DNA of 64,000 bases, taken from assembly GCF_051903065.1 (NCBI RefSeq), contig NZ_CP178438.1. One strand, given 5' to 3'. The DNA comes from Escherichia coli (GTDB taxonomy: Bacteria; Pseudomonadota; Gammaproteobacteria; Enterobacterales; Enterobacteriaceae). Under the pieces are notes generated by a model. That model searched no databases and had not been told where the DNA came from. It worked only from the letters and a program-made list of their open reading frames with translations. This document shows positions 17,964 to 63,820 of the stretch, one piece after another. The first letter of the stretch is position 1. The number at the start of each line of letters is the position of its first letter. The position numbers and the translations under genes were made by a program.

Positions 17964-18057
17964 GGGATTTCCTTCCCGCGCATCAATAAAAATGGCGCTG
18001 AAAAAATATTCAACGCCATCGACTTTTTATGCCTTTGCGGCATCGTGCAATGCGTGT

Positions 18058-18420
<363 letters not shown>

Positions 18421-54004: not shown

Positions 54005-54079
54005 GTCCTCTTAGTTAAATGGATATAACGAGCCCCTCCTAAGGGCTAATTGCAGGTTCGATTCCTGCAGGGGACACCA
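54005..54079 (+). tRNA. argW: tRNA-Arg (anticodon CCU)
   Basis: 75-nt cloverleaf GTCCTCTTAGTTAAATGGATATAACGAGCCCCTCCTAAGGGCTAATTGCAGGTTCGATTCCTGCAGGGGACACCA. Confidence 0.9.
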
Positions 54080-54254
54080 TGCACACCTCTCCTGAAATCT
54101 ACCATACCCCACAAAAAGCCTTTATAATCAGCACATACCCTTACTTATGTTACTCAAATAGTCGCCTTAATTCTCCTCAGGGGAACGTAAATCAAGTCAC
54201 ATTTGGGGGCCTATTTAGGGGCACATCTTGGTCAATCTATTGCGAGGCCCCCAG

Positions 54255-54888
54255 ATGCCACTGACAGCTCGACAAGTTGAAACAGCCAAACCCAAAGATA
54301 AAATTTATAAGATTGCCGATGGTGGTGGGCTCTACCTTCAGGTCAATCCTAACGGCTCAAAGTACTGGCGAATGAAGTACCACTATGCGGGGAAGGAAAA
54401 GAAACTATCATTTGGCACCTATCCAACTATTACATTGGCTGAAGCTCGCAAACGTCGGGATGAAGCCAAGAAAATACATGCCGATGGTAAAGATCCCGGT
54501 GAAGTCAAGAAAGCTGAAAATCTTGAGAAAAACCTTTCCGAAGGAAGAACTTTTGCCGCAATCGCCACCGAGTGGTACAACGCAAAAGTTTCAGGCTGGT
54601 CTGCCAGCTACGCTGATTATGTCGACAGAGCATTCAAAAATAATGTGTTTCCCTACATTGGAAACAGACCCATTAGTGAAATCGAACCTCTTGAACTTCT
54701 CGCAGTTCTTCAGCGTATCGAAAGCCGAGGAGCCTGCGAGCTAGCTAATAAAGTTCGCCAACGATGTGGTGAAGTGTTTCGGTATGCCATTGTTACAGGT
54801 CGGGCACGATACAATCCAGCTTCTGATCTGGTTATAGCAATGAAAAGCTATAAGCGAACACATTACCCTTTCCTGCTTCCTCCTGAAC
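54255..54888 (+). pseudogene. P4-type tyrosine integrase (IntS-like), N-terminal fragment, interrupted by IS903-type insertion
   Basis: MPLTARQVETAKPKDKIYKIADGGGLYLQVNPNGSKYWRMKYHYAGKEKKLSFGTYP...; reading frame resumes after the insertion. Confidence 0.85.
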
Positions 54889-55945
54889 GGCTTTGTTGAA
54901 TAAATCAGATTTCGGGTAAGTCTCCCCCGTAGCGGGTTGTGTTTTCAGGCAATACGCACGCTTTCAGGCATACCTGCTTTCGTCATTTTGTTCAGCGCTC
55001 GTACCAGGGCCATAGCCTCTGCAACCTGACCATCGTAGTCACGCAGTGTCAGTGAACCCCCGAACAGCTGTTTTACCCGGTACATCGCCGTTTCCGCTAT
55101 CGAGCGACGGTTGTAATCTGTTGTCCATTTCCACCGCGCATTACTCCCGGTCATTCGCTGATTAGCCACTGCACGGTTACGGTCTGCATATTCACCGGGC
55201 CAGTAACCCGCACCTTTTCGGGGAGGGATAAGCGCGCTGATTTTCTTACGCCGCAGTTCATCGTGACATAGCCGGGTATCGTAAGCGCCATCGGCGGCGG
55301 CTGACCTGATTTTCCGGTGGGTTTGCCGGATTAACCCGGGGAAGGCCTCTGAGTCCGTAACGTTGTTCAGCGACAGGTCAGCGCAGATGATTTCATGTGT
55401 TTTACTGTCAACGGCGAGATGCAGCTTACGCCAGATACGGCGGCGTTCCTGGCCATGCTTTTTGACTTTCCACTCGCCTTCACCGAAGACCTTCAGCCCG
55501 GTGGAATCAATTACCAGGTGTGCGATTTCACCCCGGGTGGGCGTTTTGAAACTGACATTAACCGACTTTGCCCGCCTGCTGACACAGCTGTAATCCGGGC
55601 AGCGTAGCGGAACGTTCATCAGAGAAAAAATGGAATCAATAAAGCCCTGCGCAGCGCGCAGGGTCAGCCTGAATACGCGTTTAATGACCAGCACAGTCGT
55701 GATGGCAAGGTCAGAATAGCGCTGAGGTCTGCCTCGTGAAGAAGGTGTTGCTGACTCATACCAGGCCTGAATAGCTTCATCATCCAGCCAGAAAGTTATG
55801 GAGCCACGGTTGATGAGGGCTTTATTGTAGGTGGGCCAGTTGGTGATTTTGAACTTTTGCTTTGCCACGGAACGGTCTGCGTTGTCGGGAAGATACGTGA
55901 TCTGATCCTTCAACTCAGCAAAAGTTCGATTTATTCAACAAAGCC
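54889..55945 (-). mobile_element. IS903-type insertion sequence (IS5 family), 1057 bp
   Basis: 18-bp terminal inverted repeats GGCTTTGTTGAATAAATC at both ends; flanked by a perfect 9-bp direct repeat CTCCTGAAC (54880-54888 and 55946-55954). Confidence 0.9.
54945..55913 (-). CDS. IS903-type transposase (DDE)
   Basis: 322 aa; MKDQITYLPDNADRSVAKQKFKITNWPTYNKALINRGSITFWLDD... Confidence 0.9.
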   Translation of the reverse strand: MKDQITYLPDNADRSVAKQKFKITNWPTYNKALINRGSITFWLDDEAIQAWYESATPSSRGRPQRYSDLAITTVLVIKRVFRLTLRAAQGFIDSIFSLMNVPLRCPDYSCVSRRAKSVNVSFKTPTRGEIAHLVIDSTGLKVFGEGEWKVKKHGQERRRIWRKLHLAVDSKTHEIICADLSLNNVTDSEAFPGLIRQTHRKIRSAAADGAYDTRLCHDELRRKKISALIPPRKGAGYWPGEYADRNRAVANQRMTGSNARWKWTTDYNRRSIAETAMYRVKQLFGGSLTLRDYDGQVAEAMALVRALNKMTKAGMPESVRIA

Positions 55946-55954
55946 CTCCTGAAC

Positions 55955-56511
55955 TACCAGAGTTTTTATACAAACTCGAAAACTACACCGGCAGTATTGT
56001 AACCCGTGAAGCTACAAAATTGTTGATGCTCACAGGGCTGAGAACAGTAGAATTACGTATGGGGGAATGGTGTGAGATCGATTTTACCCAAAAGATATGG
56101 GAAGTTCCTCCGACCCGGATGAAAATGAGGAAGGAGCATATCGTCCCTCTGTCAGATCAGGCAATCCAGTCTCTGCAAATCCTCAAAGAACTGACTGGAA
56201 GATACAGATACATCTTTGCCGGAAGAAATGATGTTAACAGGCCTATCAGCGATGCAAGCGTCAATATGGTTTTGAAGAAGATTGGCTATGACAAAAAAGC
56301 TACCGGGCATGGATTTCGTCATACAATGAGTACTGTTCTACACGAGCAAGGATTCAATAGTGCATGGATTGAAATGCAACTTGCACATACGGACAAAAAC
56401 AGCATTCGTGGTACATACAACCATGCTCGTTACCTTGAAGGAAGACGAGAAATGATGCAATGGTACGCTGACTACCTTGATGCTCTTCGAAAAGAGTCAC
56501 CAGCTATATAA
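55955..56511 (+). pseudogene. P4-type tyrosine integrase, C-terminal catalytic fragment
   Basis: Frame continues from the N-terminal fragment once the IS and one repeat copy are removed; catalytic-domain motifs (HGFRHT, terminal Y). Confidence 0.85.
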
Positions 56512-56805
56512 TCGCTTGATTTTAAAGGCTGACTTAACGATATCCCCCTGATAGTCATTTATCAGTTATCTAATTATTAAGTCAGCCATAATCCCCTAAG
56601 TATCATTCCTTAATCAGATTCAGCACCTTGTAATACGACCGGTTAATTTAGAAAGAGACGATAGATAAACGCTTATGATGAAATACTAAGAAATTACTTC
56701 AGGCTCTATTAACTGGAGCTGTAATAGACAATAATTTAAATAACGCAATAGTTATATTTATATCTTAATATAAATTTCCACTGTATTTAAGGTAATGACT
56801 CCAAC

Positions 56806-57309
56806 TTATTGATAGTGTTTTATGTTCAGATAATGCCCGATGACTTTGTCATGCAGCTCCACCGATTTTGAGAACGACAGCGACTTCCGTCCCAGCCGTG
56901 CCAGGTGCTGCCTCAGATTCAGGTTATGCCGCTCAATTCGCTGCGTATATCGCTTGCTGATTACGTGCAGCTTTCCCTTCAGGCGGGATTCATACAGCGG
57001 CCAGCCATCCGTCATCCATATCACCACGTCAAAGGGTGACAGCAGGCTCATAAGACGCCCCAGCGTCGCCATAGTGCGTTCACCGAATACGTGCGCAACA
57101 ACCGTCTTCCGGAGCCTGTCATACGCGTAAAACAGCCAGCGCTGGCGCGATTTAGCCCCGACATAGCCCCACTGTTCGTCCATTTCCGCGCAGACGATGA
57201 CGTCACTGCCCGGCTGTATGCGCGAGGTTACCGACTGCGGCCTGAGTTTTTTAAGTGACGTAAAATCGTGTTGAGGCCAACGCCCATAATGCGGGCTGTT
57301 GCCCGGCAT
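56806..57309 (-). CDS. insB: IS1 InsB
   Basis: 167-aa ORF in IS1. Confidence 0.9.
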
Positions 57310-57503
57310 CCAACGCCATTCATGGCCATATCAATGATTTTCTGGTGCGTACCGGGTTGAGAAGCGGTGTAAGTGAACTGCAGTTGCCATGTTTTACGGC
57401 AGTGAGAGCAGAGATAGCGCTGATGTCCGGCGGTGCTTTTGCCGTTACGCACCACCCCGTCAGTAGCTGAACAGGAGGGACAGCTGATAGAAACAGAAGC
57501 CAC
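57228..57503 (-). CDS. insA: IS1 InsA
   Basis: 91-aa [46 protein letters not shown]. Confidence 0.9.
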
Positions 57504-57535
57504 TGGAGCACCTCAAAAACACCATCATACACTAA

Positions 57536-57937
<402 letters not shown>

Positions 57938-58033
57938 CATGCATCACAACAGCTCCTCATAGGCACTCAGTGGTCGATGTTCCACCTGACTGATCTGCTG
58001 CCAGAGCGGGGCGTGAGGTTCCGGTACTATCTG

Positions 58034-58375
58034 CTAGCCAGACGACACTGAGCAGAGGCGATGTGAGGCCACCAGTTTCTCATTACTGTAGATCCGCAAC
58101 TCATCGTTCAGCGATATTCGTATCGAGACTGGCTGACCACACAGCATTTCGGGAACGCTGTACTGATTACCTCCAACTTCGTTATAGCGGGTCCCAGGAC
58201 ACATGGCGGATGTCGAAGTAACTGGTATCGAAGTCTGTATCCGGTAACGGCTGCAGATGTTCCTGCTCCAGCGCGAAGCGCTGTTCCGGCGTTTCTTTGA
58301 ACTGACGAAGCTCCCATTTGTCAGCCACATCGGCTAGCGCCAGCTAACCTATGCGGTACTGGCCTTGGTGCTAAC
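58034..58375 (-). pseudogene. IS21-family IstA transposase fragment (frameshifted)
   Basis: Minus-strand frames give ...EQEHLQPLPDTDFDTSYFDIRHVSWDPL and GNQYSVPEMLCGQPVSIRISLNDELRIYSNEKLVASHRL; opposite orientation to the istB fragment. Confidence 0.6.
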
Positions 58376-58616
58376 CCGCGTTAAAGCTACCACGTTGATC
58401 AGAGCCTCTCTCCCGGAAAGTCATACTGTCTTACATATTAATCACTCAAAATAGAGTAAATAAAATCATACAACTAGAGAGTGATTATAATTGTTATTGA
58501 ACACTGGTTATCCCATTTTTGTTATATTGATCACAAAACCCTTCTTTTTATGATGATCTAAAAATAAATATTAAATATTGTGGTCAGGCCGCTAGACCAC
58601 AATAAGAGGAAATATC

Positions 58617-59906
58617 ATGAAAAGAAAAACCATGGGGTGGATTATCGTTTTTCTTCTGTTTATAGTTTACATGCTGAACTATATGGATCGTTCTGCATTA
58701 TCGATTACGGCCCCACTTATCGAAAAAGAGTTAGGCTTTAATGCTGCTGAAATGGGGATGATTTTCAGCGCATTTTTCGTTGGTTATGCTTTATTTAACT
58801 TCATTGGCGGTTGGGCCAGTGACAAAGTTGGACCCAAAACAGTATTTTTGGTTGCTGCACTGTTGTGGTCTGTTTTTTGTGGTATGACCGGTCTGGTCAC
58901 CGGATTATGGACAATGCTTGCCGTACGTGTTTTATTTGGTATGGCAGAGGGCCCGGTTAGTGCAGCAGGAAATAAAATTATTAATAACTGGATCTCGCGT
59001 AAAGAGTCGGCAACAGCTATCGGTATTTTTAGTGCTGGTTCACCACTTGGTGGCGCTATTTCTGGTCCGGTCGTTGGCTTGCTGGCAATATCACTTGGCT
59101 GGCGTCCGGCGTTTGGGATCATATTTATATTTGGCCTAGTTTGGGTATTACTGTGGTACTTCTTTGTCAGTGATAAACCGTCAAAAAGTAAACGTCTGGC
59201 AGCGGAAGAACGTGTCGATTTCGAAAACCATGACGATATTATTCTAGCCGAAGATGGTAAAGGTACACCTTCGCTTGGTTATTACATGAAGCAGCCGATG
59301 GTATGGGCGACCACGCTGGCATTTTTTAGCTATAACTATATTCTATTTTTCTTTCTTACTTGGTTTCCAAGCTATTTGAATCATTCATTACACATTGATA
59401 TTAAAGAAATTAGTATTGCAACTGTTATCCCGTGGTTTATTGGGGCAATTGGCATGGTGTTAGGTGGCGTCTGCTCTGACTTTATTTATCGTATTACGGG
59501 AAATGCCTTACTTTCTCGCCGTTTAATTCTCGGCAGTTGCCTTGCGGGGGCCGCGGTTTGTGTCGCTGTTTCCGGAACTGTTACCTCTATTGGTAGTGCG
59601 ATTACGCTGATGTCTGTTTCCTTATTCCTGCTTTATCTAACTGGACCTATTTATTGGGCTGTTATTCAGGATGTAGTGCATAAAGATAAAGTAGGTAGCG
59701 TAGGCGGTGCGATGCACGGTCTGGCAAATATTTCCGGCATTATTGGTCCATTGGTAACCGGTTTTATTGTCCAGTTCAGTGGTAAATATGATTACGCATT
59801 CTATCTTGCAGGTGCCATAGCAATCATTTCAAGTCTGCTGGTATTCATTTTTGTTAAAAATAAAGGATTGAAATTCAATGAAAGTCAAAGCTGTGTACAT
59901 CAATAA
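58617..59906 (+). CDS. MFS transporter, anion:cation symporter (ACS) type (sugar-acid/hexuronate-like)
   Basis: 429 aa, 12 predicted TM; motif GGWASDKVGPK; absent from this position in K-12. Confidence 0.85.
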   Translation: MKRKTMGWIIVFLLFIVYMLNYMDRSALSITAPLIEKELGFNAAEMGMIFSAFFVGYALFNFIGGWASDKVGPKTVFLVAALLWSVFCGMTGLVTGLWTMLAVRVLFGMAEGPVSAAGNKIINNWISRKESATAIGIFSAGSPLGGAISGPVVGLLAISLGWRPAFGIIFIFGLVWVLLWYFFVSDKPSKSKRLAAEERVDFENHDDIILAEDGKGTPSLGYYMKQPMVWATTLAFFSYNYILFFFLTWFPSYLNHSLHIDIKEISIATVIPWFIGAIGMVLGGVCSDFIYRITGNALLSRRLILGSCLAGAAVCVAVSGTVTSIGSAITLMSVSLFLLYLTGPIYWAVIQDVVHKDKVGSVGGAMHGLANISGIIGPLVTGFIVQFSGKYDYAFYLAGAIAIISSLLVFIFVKNKGLKFNESQSCVHQ

Positions 59907-60903
59907 ACCTGGTGAAATTGCTACCCGTCTGGTCGATTATCCAGTAAGAAAAGATAATGAAGTTTTAATTAAAGTGGATGCAGCGGGAATTTGTGGTTCT
60001 GACATCGGTGCATTTCGTGGTACTAACCCACTGGTAACTTATCCGAGAATTATTGGACATGAAGTCACCGGGATTGTTCTGGAAACCGGTGAGGGGGTAC
60101 CACAAAATATCAAACAGGGCGACCGGGTTATTGTAGATCCCTATGTTTATTGCGGTCACTGTTATCCATGTTCTGTAGGTAGAACTAATTGCTGCGAGAA
60201 CTTAAAAGTCATCGGCGTACATATTGATGGCGCTATGCAAGAAGTGGTTTCGCATCCGGCTCACTTAATTCACAAAATTCCTGACAATGTACCGTCAGAG
60301 ATGGCGCCACTGGCTGAACCCTTAACTATTGCCCTACACGCATTACATCGAGCGCAATTGAAAGCAGGTGAACATGTCGTCATTATTGGTGCAGGCGCTA
60401 TTGGACTTATGGCGGCCCTGAGTTCGTTGAACTATAAAGCAACTCCCATTCTGGTTGATATTGTCGATGAACGGTTGCAATACGCGAAATCGCTCGGCGT
60501 ACCTTATGTAGTAAACTCCGCAAAAGCTAATGTTATTGAGGCAGTGAAAGATATTACACAAGGGACGATGGCTCAGGTTGTGGTGGAAGCCTCTGGTGCA
60601 AATAGCGCAATCAGAAGTACCCTGGATCTGGCCTCATTTGCAGGGCGTATAGCCTATACTGGTTGGCCAAAGCAGGAAACATCGTTACCAACTAATCTAA
60701 TTACCTTTAAAGAACTAGATTTACGTGGTTCCCGTACCAGTGCCGGTGAATTTGAAGAAGCCCTGCAAATGTTATCAACGCTGAATATTAATCCGGCTGA
60801 TATCGTGAGCAAAGTCGTGACAATAGATGAAGTTCCTGAGGCTGTAAAAGAGTTAGATCAATTTCCGGAACGCTATCTGAAAATTAACGTGAAATTCATT
60901 TAA
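59878..60903 (+). CDS. Zn-dependent medium-chain dehydrogenase (L-galactonate 5-dehydrogenase LgoD-like)
   Basis: 341 aa; catalytic Zn GHEVTG, structural Zn CGHCYPCSVGRTNCC, NAD motif GAGAIGL; overlaps the MFS gene by 29 nt. Confidence 0.85.
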   Translation: MKVKAVYINKPGEIATRLVDYPVRKDNEVLIKVDAAGICGSDIGAFRGTNPLVTYPRIIGHEVTGIVLETGEGVPQNIKQGDRVIVDPYVYCGHCYPCSVGRTNCCENLKVIGVHIDGAMQEVVSHPAHLIHKIPDNVPSEMAPLAEPLTIALHALHRAQLKAGEHVVIIGAGAIGLMAALSSLNYKATPILVDIVDERLQYAKSLGVPYVVNSAKANVIEAVKDITQGTMAQVVVEASGANSAIRSTLDLASFAGRIAYTGWPKQETSLPTNLITFKELDLRGSRTSAGEFEEALQMLSTLNINPADIVSKVVTIDEVPEAVKELDQFPERYLKINVKFI

Positions 60904-61446: not shown

Positions 61447-62265
61447 TTAAGCAGCCATCTGATGATATTTTTCCCTGAAGGCTGCCGGGGAGATATTCCC
61501 CAGACGAGAGTGACGACGCTGACGATTGTAGAAAATCTCAATGTATTCCCGTATTACTGAGATGGCCTCATCCCGGCTATTAAAACGATAGTGGCTCAGG
61601 CTCTCATTTTTCAGCGTTCCCCAGAAGCTTTCCATCGGAGCGTTGTCGTAACAGTTACCTTTACGCGACATTGATGTTTTCAGACCAAACTGCTCCTGGA
61701 TGACCCGGTAATCGTATGCGCAGTACTGTGAACCTCGATCGGAGTGGTGGATTAGCCCAGCAGGTGGGCGCTGGCTCCTGAGCGCCATAAACATGGCTTT
61801 ACCTGTCAGCTCTTTTGTCATGCGCTCTCCCATGGCGTAGCCGACAATTTCGCACGTATAAACATCTTTGATGCCAGCGAGGTACAACCATCCCTCCTGT
61901 GTGGCAACATACGTCAGGTCCGCCACCCAGACCTGATTTGGTACTGTAGGAGCGAACGTCTGGTTCAGCAGATTTGGCGCAACTGGCAGATTGTGGCTCG
62001 AGTTCGTAGTCGCTCTGAACTTGCGTTTCTGCTTACAGCGTAGCCTTAGCTCCTTACGAAGACGTGCCAGTCGGTCACGACCAACGATGATGCCATTCTC
62101 TGCCAGCTCCGTCTGGAGCCGCCGGGTTCCATATGTTTCGCGAGTGCTGATATGTGCCACCTTAATCTCCAGTTTTAGCCGCTCATCACTTTGTTTTCTG
62201 TCTGAGGGGTCATGCTGTACCCAGTTGTAATAACCGCTCCTGGATACACCAAATACCTGACACAT
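61447..62265 (-). CDS. IS3-family transposase OrfB (DDE integrase-like domain)
   Basis: 272 aa; ...VWVADLTYV..., [19 protein letters not shown] motifs. Confidence 0.88.
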
Positions 62266-62342
62266 CGCTTCAATGGGAAATTGTTGTCGCCATTGTTCGA
62301 TTAACGCGTATTTTTCAGCGACTCCTGTGCAAAATACGCTGT

Positions 62343-63563
62343 TGTAGATTCAATCTGTCAATGCAACACCCCTTTCAATTATCTCTTTCGGTGTTTTGAA
62401 CTTCAGTGTCTTTCTCGGTCTGTTGTTTAGCTGAGCAGCAACCAGATCTAGTTCATGTTGAGTATATTGGGCAAGACATGTCTTTTTAGGAAAGTACTGC
62501 CGAATTAGCCCATTTGTGTTCTCATTTGTTCCCCGCTGCCAAGGACTCTGAGGATCGCAGAAGTAAACTTTAACGCCGGTGCTGACAGTAAATTCTAGAT
62601 GTCTGGCCAGTTCCATTCCTCTGTCCCATGTCAGTGATTTTCTGAGTTCTGACGGTAAACTCAGGAATTTGTCGGTAAGAGCCTGATTTACTGAGACAGA
62701 ATCTTTGCCCCTGAGTCTAAGGATGATCGTATAACGTGATTTTCGGTCTACAAGTGTGGCTATATGAGAGTTTTTTGTACCTAAGACTAAATCGCCCTCC
62801 CAATGCCCCAGAGAGCGTCTGTTATCGATATTTCGGGAACGTTCGTGAATTGGTGTTCCGTTCACTATGTTAATCGTACCTCTTTCGCCTTTGCGGGTAT
62901 GACGCCTGCCATGGCGAAGGCTATGCGACCGTCGCAGATGCTGTATATTCAGGTGGTGTAGCGCTTCACGGCTACGAAAGTACAGCGTTTTATAAATTGT
63001 CTCAGGTGATATTCGCAGCGTTTTTTGACGTGGTTTTGTTCGCCTTAACCATCCTGATATTTGCTCTGGAGACCATTTCATCTCCAGCTTTTCCAGAACA
63101 AGCTTTCGCAATGGTAAATTTTGATCCAGTAAGCACGGTTTTGGCCTTTTCGCCATTCTGTTGGCTCGGTTATTAGCATCAACAGCTTTGTAATAGCGTC
63201 TGCCCCGATTACGCTGAACTTCACGTGAGATCGTCGAAGGACTGCGATTCAGCGCAGTAGCTATCGCACGAATGCTCATTTTGGCTGACAAACCAGCTCG
63301 TATCTCCTCGCGCTCAGACAGTGTCAGGTGAGCTACAGCCCGCTTACGCTCATGGGGTTTTATGCCGCCAGTATCCCTTAACATAGTGAAGATCGTTCCG
63401 GGTTTTGAACCCAGGATATTCGCTATTTCACTGAAGCCTGTTCCGTTCTTCCATAGTTCAAAAACAGAGGCTTTTTCCTCTGCTGTAAATGTTCGTCTCA
63501 TTCAAAAAACCTCTGCAACCCCATGTTTTCACATAACTGTTGCGTTGACCAATTGAATCTACA
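62343..63563 (-). mobile_element. IS30, 1221 bp
   Basis: Ends TGTAGATTCAATCTGTCAATGCAACACCCC and (reverse complement) TGTAGATTCAATTGGTCAACGCAACAG; 383-aa transposase inside. Confidence 0.92.
62350..63501 (-). CDS. insI: IS30 transposase
   Basis: 383 aa; MRRTFTAEEKASVFELWKNGTGFSEIANILGSKPGTIFTMLRD... Confidence 0.92.
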   Translation of the reverse strand: MRRTFTAEEKASVFELWKNGTGFSEIANILGSKPGTIFTMLRDTGGIKPHERKRAVAHLTLSEREEIRAGLSAKMSIRAIATALNRSPSTISREVQRNRGRRYYKAVDANNRANRMAKRPKPCLLDQNLPLRKLVLEKLEMKWSPEQISGWLRRTKPRQKTLRISPETIYKTLYFRSREALHHLNIQHLRRSHSLRHGRRHTRKGERGTINIVNGTPIHERSRNIDNRRSLGHWEGDLVLGTKNSHIATLVDRKSRYTIILRLRGKDSVSVNQALTDKFLSLPSELRKSLTWDRGMELARHLEFTVSTGVKVYFCDPQSPWQRGTNENTNGLIRQYFPKKTCLAQYTQHELDLVAAQLNNRPRKTLKFKTPKEIIERGVALTD

Positions 63564-63820
63564 ACGGCTTTTTTTAATATGTCCCGTTCGTCGGTAACCC
63601 GCTTCAGCTCTTTCTGGAGACGGCGGATCTCGGCCTGAGCATCTGACTGTTCTTTATTAGTGGAAGAATCCGGACCGTACTTCTTTATCCAGGAGTAAAG
63701 GCTGTGGGTGGTGATATTGAGACGTGTTGCAACGCTGGCAACAGAATAACCGCGATCAACAACCTGTTTGACTGCTTCAATTTTAAACTCTTCGGGATAA
63801 CGCTTACCGCTCATGGGCAC
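63564..63820 (-). CDS. IS3-family OrfA (HTH), 3' end interrupted by IS30
   Basis: MSGKRYPEEFKIEAVKQVVDRGYSVASVATRLNITTHSLYSWIKKYG...ERDILKKA, then the A-run slippery site and the IS30 end. Confidence 0.8.

Follow-up and report, generated by a model that had tools for sequence, protein, structure and literature searches.

The gene for a P4-like tyrosine integrase, carried by a genomic island at argW in Escherichia coli, has very probably been interrupted by transposition of the insertion sequence IS903B, in an event that appears recent, lineage-specific and only one step in a continuing IS-driven decay of the island. In the proposed course of events, an active IS903B (IS5 family, with a DDE transposase) would have transposed into the integrase gene of the island lodged at the 3´ end of argW. 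The transposase would have made the 9-bp staggered cut typical of IS903, and repair of this cut would have generated the duplication CTCCTGAAC. The product of the integrase gene would now be an arm- and core-binding fragment of at most 214 residues, and the catalytic domain, left without a start codon or promoter of its own, would render the island recombinase non-functional. As a later step in sister strains, the 4.75 kb adjacent to the same IS903B copy would have been lost, including the 3´ half of the integrase gene. The window, that is, the whole 64-kb stretch of DNA that was analysed, contains the features collected in Table 1.

Table 1. Positions of the island, integrase and insertion sequence features in the window
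Feature	Position	Strand	Remarks
tRNA-Arg(CCT) gene argW	54005..54079	+	Found with ARAGORN; integration target of the island
attL core ATTCCTGCAGGGGACACCA	54061..54079	+	19 bp, 3´ end of argW; repeated as attR in the sister genome
Integrase gene, 5´ part	54255..54888	+	Codons 1-211 plus one base; arm-binding and core-binding domains; start codon matches RefSeq CDS WP_001131472.1
Target-site duplication CTCCTGAAC, left copy	54880..54888	.	Single copy at empty sites
IS903B	54889..55945	-	1057 bp; perfect 18-bp inverted repeats at 54889-54906 and 55928-55945
IS903B transposase ORF	54945..55913	-	322 aa, TTG start, intact; CDS is WP_000654812.1
Target-site duplication CTCCTGAAC, right copy	55946..55954	.	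Flush with the right end of IS903B
Stretch deleted in 23CRST031 and 23CRST027	55946..60696	.	4,751 bp, flush with the right end of IS903B
Integrase gene, 3´ part	55955..56511	+	Whole catalytic domain: R241, K271, H330, R333, H356, Y366
IS1	56791..57558	-	280 bp past the integrase stop codon; without target duplication

The terminal 18-mer of the inserted element is GGCTTTGTTGAATAAATC, and its reverse complement forms the last 18 bases with zero mismatches, the identity between the two ends fading past base 18. This 18-mer is found only twice in the 64-kb window, both times at the ends of the element, with up to two mismatches allowed, while the expectation from 100 shuffles is none. The 9-bp duplication CTCCTGAAC is perfect on both flanks, and the chance identity of two given 9-mers is about 4e-6. 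A single transposase ORF is present in the element according to the list of ORFs, on the minus strand, and at 357 bits it exceeds the cut-off (140) of NF033579, the NCBIfam model for the IS5 family. Furthermore, a copy with 100% identity to the entire element is present in E. coli 23CRST031, where RefSeq labels it 'IS5-like element IS903B family transposase' (WP_000654812.1). The initial annotation had described a 1057-bp element of IS903 type with identical 18-bp terminal inverted repeats, flanked by a perfect 9-bp direct repeat, and its coordinates, its sequence, its flanking repeats and its type all hold.

Published descriptions give 1057 bp, a TTG-start tnp gene of 969 nt and 9-bp target duplications for IS903 (PMC9282650), and 1057 bp with 9-bp direct repeats for IS903B (PMC10513040). 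The traits of IS903/IS903B that were tested, namely the length of 1057 bp, the perfect 18-bp inverted repeats, the 9-bp duplication and the IS5-family transposase, are all present in the window copy. The evidence supports identification of the element as IS903B, a member of the IS5 family, with the isoform name resting on the RefSeq label. The window copy has the same length, 18-bp inverted repeats, single 969-nt TTG-start tnp and 9-bp duplication as the copies responsible for mgrB inactivation in Klebsiella and as the arms of Tn903 and Tn602. Simple insertional inactivation of a gene is likewise common to them, and inactivation by IS903B is a familiar event, as exemplified by mgrB in Klebsiella (PMC10513040). 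The location alone differs from the known cases: the window copy is solitary, in an island integrase gene and outside any composite transposon.

In its present state, the 5´ ORF of the integrase gene reads into IS903B and reaches a stop at 54899, encoding 211 native residues followed by RLC (...LLPPE-RLC-stop). Removal in silico of IS903B and one copy of the repeat joins the two parts of the gene in frame, as had been claimed, to give 1191 nt encoding 396 aa, a product that contains the peptide quoted in the initial annotation. The reconstructed protein comprises the Pfam domains Arm-DNA-bind_3 (DUF4102; residues 3-88, E-value 8e-28), Phage_int_M (residues 100-193, 1e-32) and Phage_integrase (residues 207-371, 5e-26). 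P4 Int aligns with it over its full length (residues 1-390) at 44% identity, with E = 4e-114. The catalytic R-K-H-R-H-Y set, located by motif, is complete and aligns with its counterparts in IntS and P4 Int. The insertion point lies at codon 212, between the core-binding domain (to residue 193) and the catalytic domain (from residue 207), and all six catalytic residues fall in the 3´ fragment, which is now separated from the start codon and promoter. As the translated part contains none of the catalytic residues, the integrase is predicted to be inactive.

The interpretation of the interrupted gene as that of a P4-like tyrosine integrase, already proposed from the sequence, is supported by the three Pfam domains and by the alignment with P4 Int, the full-length comparison having been suggested beforehand as a check. 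The arm-binding, central and catalytic architecture and the six catalytic residues are shared with P4 Int and with the integrases of P4-like islands. The placement is also the same as for the island integrases, with the gene directly downstream of a tRNA gene whose 3´ end constitutes the att core. In contrast to P4 Int, the window integrase is without about 40 residues that are present in the phage protein, and its gene is interrupted. P4 targets leuX, whereas the window integrase targets argW.

The integrase had also been described as a different allele from IntS of the K-12 element CPS-53. The difference is confirmed but the term 'allele' does not stand, since the reconstructed protein and K-12 IntS share only 48% amino-acid identity. 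The integrases of Sf6, HK633, CUS-3 and related phages reach a similar value (about 48%). The score of the reconstructed protein against NCBIfam PRK09692 is 289 bits, under the 434-bit cut-off, and in a megablast search with the reconstructed gene, other integrases match in short 82%-identical segments only. These three comparisons (the identity to IntS, the sub-cut-off PRK09692 score and the short nucleotide matches) rule out an allele of K-12 IntS, and the level of identity marks the window integrase, as judged from sequence comparison, as a lineage separate from IntS that uses the same argW tRNA target. IntS of KplE1/CPS-53 and the integrases of the Sf6, HK620 and HK633 phages share with it the tRNA gene argW and the same position and orientation beside attL. 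However, the element that hosts the window integrase is a non-phage island (with an Ag43-like autotransporter and a YeeU-type module) and not a prophage as in KplE1/CPS-53, and no TorI-like excisionase was found here.

The tRNA-Arg(CCT) gene, the only tRNA gene that ARAGORN detects in the region, is identified as argW by synteny with yfdC and mlaA in K-12, where it bears this name, and a tRNA-Arg is annotated in the identical sister genome. The integrase start lies 175 bp downstream, in agreement with the argW adjacency previously noted. Of the 16 nucleotides of the KplE1 core, CTGCAGGGGACACCAT (PMC2951348), 15 are present in the 19-bp sequence ATTCCTGCAGGGGACACCA that forms the 3´ end of argW. 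An attR copy of ATTCCTGCAGGGGACACCA is located in the sister genome (28986-29008 of locus L004), 23.1 kb from argW. No second copy, and thus no attR, is found within the 64-kb window, even at 2-3 mismatches, because the island runs past position 64000. The island has both a tRNA-adjacent integrase gene and a repeat of the tRNA 3´ end at its far end, the far repeat being known from the sister genome only. The argW-dsdCXA/csc interval is a variable region of E. coli according to Moritz & Welch 2006, as cited in PMC7545054, and it is this hot spot of the chromosome, with yfdC-argW on one side and the csc/dsdA genes on the other, that the island occupies.

The uninterrupted form of the locus was searched for in a set of 5,426 complete E. 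coli genomes, about 265 of which hold at least 80% of the reconstructed 1191-nt gene; 243 records match this gene at 99% identity or more. The junction search that had been suggested at the outset recovers both the empty site and intact copies of the gene. The intact integrase is present at 100% identity over 1191 nt in many strains, for example as WP_001131472.1 in 14EC033 and AMSCJX02. When the IS-containing query is aligned with the genomes that carry the intact gene, it matches in two pieces spanning 1581-1585 bp, which is the query length less 1057 and 9. The empty site TTCCTCCTGAACTACCAG, with one copy of the 9-mer, occurs in other E. coli genomes, and 14EC033 carries a single CTCCTGAAC. 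Neither half of the window integrase has any substitution with respect to the intact allele. The view that the insertion is recent is well supported by the perfect duplication and inverted repeats, the intact transposase and the lack of further substitutions in the integrase; the initial description of an apparently recent event is upheld.

The left junction of the insertion was found in only two of the 5,426 complete genomes, those of strains 23CRST031 and 23CRST027, both from human faeces in Ecuador, while the right junction was found in none of the complete E. coli genomes. The window is 99.996% identical to 23CRST031 over its first 48.2 kb (one mismatch and one gap) and 100% identical from 47950 to 55947, so that the identity ranges from 99.996 to 100% over 55.9 kb. 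This near-total identity indicates that the window belongs to the same clone as 23CRST031 and 23CRST027, the three being essentially clonal at the sequence level. In 23CRST031, local BLAST and the junction sequences reveal that the right end of IS903B is joined directly to window position 60697, and a truncated alcohol dehydrogenase is annotated beside the IS. The missing segment held the 3´ half of the integrase gene, IS1, an IstB fragment, an MFS transporter gene and most of a gene for a Zn-dependent alcohol dehydrogenase.

The deleted form was considered as the ancestral one and rejected, given that in the window the target duplication is intact and the 4.75 kb absent from the sister strains is arranged in the same order as in other strains. 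As this order is that of unrelated strains, the window would represent the primary insertion and 23CRST031 and 23CRST027 a later deletion derivative, a succession of events that we infer from the arrangement of the junctions. Two origins of the deletion fit the junction equally: an adjacent deletion by intramolecular transposition of IS903B, and recombination between this copy and another one in direct orientation. Adjacent deletion by intramolecular transposition is known for IS903 from the older literature. IS903B is abundant in the clone, with 19-20 places in 23CRST031 against a median of 2 among the genomes with any copy, and a further IS903B in 23CRST031, at the position corresponding to 63788-63796 of the window, has its own 9-bp duplication, CTCTTCGGG.

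Nothing observed speaks against the structural interpretation, but the consequence of the insertion for the island is less clear than the insertion itself. The initial annotation had reasoned that the island was probably immobilised by a simple insertion; the simple insertion is confirmed, but the loss of island excision through IS903B is a plausible inference. With its earlier rearrangements by other IS elements and no excisionase that could be recognised, the island may have been poorly mobile beforehand, and something other than the insertion may have ended its mobility. An alternative reading accepts the insertion as real but functionally irrelevant, with IS903B striking a gene that was no longer under selection in an island already immobile. 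This is possible, although it seems to us somewhat doubtful.

Several observations point in the direction of an island that had already lost its mobility. A tblastn search with two queries, K-12 TorI and P4 Vis, over the window tail and three related loci returned only noise (E > 0.5), so that neither the window tail nor the sister island yielded a protein like TorI or P4 Vis. The island carries rearrangements associated with IS1, IS3, IS30, IS66 and IS21, including an IS30 nested inside an IS3-family element in the window, and the island genes of the sister genome are mostly annotated as partial or as pseudogenes. The related island of AMSCJX02, which has an intact integrase, gives the fuller form: it is about 41 kb long, adjoins the csc sucrose genes and contains a defence-like cluster (an HsdR-N protein, a DEAD/DEAH helicase, an ATPase and a TerB-N protein), the MFS and alcohol dehydrogenase gene pair, many IS remnants, an Ag43-like autotransporter and a DUF932 / antirestriction / JAB / DUF987 / YeeU module. 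The IS1 beside the window integrase, which has no target duplication, replaces about 14 kb, with the defence-like cluster, that is present in AMSCJX02 and 14EC033, and it marks an older island deletion of that size. Moreover, in strain 2013C-3513 the same integrase has been independently disrupted by IS600, which fits with relaxed selection on the integrase gene in some lineages.

The idea of prior immobility is opposed by the state of the gene and of the island ends. The integrase ORF is otherwise undecayed and 100% identical to an allele that is intact in hundreds of diverse genomes, and the 19-bp attR persists in the sister genome. Excisionases are small and diverse, so the null result of two tblastn queries is compatible with an excisionase being present, and a divergent small one may have been missed. 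With regard to complementation, neither the window nor the segments of the sister island encode a second integrase able to act in trans; one encoded at some other site of the genome might do so in principle. The preferred reading remains that of a recent IS903B transposition into the integrase gene as a step in the decay of the island, whatever its share in ending mobility.

It may also be asked whether the disruption was selected rather than neutral, either because it locks the island in place or because the N-terminal DNA-binding fragment that it leaves is of use. In favour of this, the break separates precisely the DNA-binding half (residues 1-193) from the catalytic domain (residues 207-371), the promoter-proximal half is left intact, and autorepression through binding to arm-type sites is known for integrases whose promoter overlaps attL (PMC2951348). 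However, the insertion occurs in one clone only, the remaining cargo of the island consists mostly of pseudogenes, and a clone with 19-20 copies of IS903B is expected to have many genes struck by chance. In addition, the spacer between argW and the integrase gene contains only weak repeats, without convincing arm-type repeats, and no convincing promoter, promoter-like matches being no commoner than in shuffled sequences. Selection is very unlikely on this evidence. A more specific form of the idea, that the 214-residue N-terminal product persists from an attL-overlapping promoter as a non-catalytic DNA-binding protein and acts as a new regulator, has a very slight probability. Were it true, the fragment could occupy the attL/argW core sites and hinder related integrases, including those of incoming phages that target argW.

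Finally, an assembly artefact, in which an IS copy has been misplaced and the true locus is either intact or in the deleted form of 23CRST031, is scarcely credible: the absence of the right junction from all of the complete genomes and the approximately 20 near-identical IS903B copies of the clone, which make assembly harder, would favour it, but a misplaced repeat would not explain why a 9-mer that occurs once at empty sites is perfectly duplicated here, the left junction is independently confirmed in two closed genomes, and the right-hand sequence (55946-56790) follows without deviation that of the genomes with an intact gene.

The components of this configuration are all textbook ones, and its left junction is already known from RefSeq, where it appears as a partial integrase beside an IS903B transposase. 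The configuration with both junctions occurs in none of the 5,426 complete genomes searched and adds just the intermediate step of an ordinary decay pathway. Together with the closed genomes of 23CRST031 and 23CRST027, the window captures two successive steps of erosion by IS903B within one clone, a simple insertion with its target duplication and then a flush 4.75-kb deletion, and thereby provides a clean natural example of a well-known process. The finding is genuine but commonplace, and its importance hardly extends beyond annotation. In that respect, a single pseudogene with an IS903B interruption is the appropriate entry for the two integrase fragments, and the island is best treated as a fixed, decaying remnant rather than as a mobile element.

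Comparison of the window with 14EC033 and AMSCJX02, two Escherichia coli strains that keep the argW integrase intact and carry fuller islands, showed that about 14 kb of island DNA has been replaced in the window by the IS1 copy beside the integrase, a copy for which no target-site duplication was found. The window's island also lacks the HsdR-N/helicase/TerB-N cluster that lies at L002 16227-25581 and L008 5119-15445 in islands with an intact integrase. This cluster, which resembles an anti-phage defence system, encodes a protein with an N-terminal HsdR domain, a hypothetical protein, a DEAD/DEAH helicase, an ATP-binding protein and a protein with an N-terminal TerB domain. Further along, an IS3-family element (61447-63820) is interrupted by IS30, forming a nested IS.

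Insertion sequence features of the window
Feature	Coordinates	Remarks
IS1	56791-57558	No target-site duplication; flanks CTGTATTTAA vs AGCGCTTCAG
istB (IS21 family)	57545-57871	Truncated; adjoins the IS1
IS3-family orfB	61447-62265	Split from orfA by IS30
IS30	~62343-63563	Transposase 62350-63501; inverted repeats detected
IS3-family orfA	63458-63820	Split from orfB by IS30

Identity between window 50000-54888 and 14EC033 is only 96.8% over the whole stretch. The hypothetical 343-aa ORF located between fadL and mlaA (50524-51555) has a strain-dependent length, with 1032 nt in the window and in 23CRST031 versus 1245 nt in 14EC033. Between dedD and cvpA, a 91-bp unit composed of REP/BIME-like palindromic sequences is present in four tandem copies, with 96% matching (18055-18414). 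At the other end of the island, a DUF4942-domain gene fragment in a sister genome (L004 28624-29008) lies immediately outside the attR repeat and ahead of cscB; this fragment may be what is left of an earlier element that had integrated in tandem at argW.

The argW integrase has also been disrupted elsewhere. In strain 2013C-3513 it is annotated as two fragments flanking an IS600 transposase (NZ_CP027555.1 4773872-4776719), a disruption of the same gene that is independent of the IS903B insertion in the window.

The sister strains 23CRST031 and 23CRST027 are near-identical to the window. Both lack 4,751 bp (window 55946-60696), and alignment with the 23CRST031 locus (NZ_AP045800.1) places the deletion edge at the exact right end of IS903B. 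Both also carry an extra IS903B at window 63788-63796, with the 9-bp duplication CTCTTCGGG. Because IS903B occupies 19-20 places in each of these sister genomes, its expansion is suggested to be under way in the clone shared by the window and the 23CRST strains.
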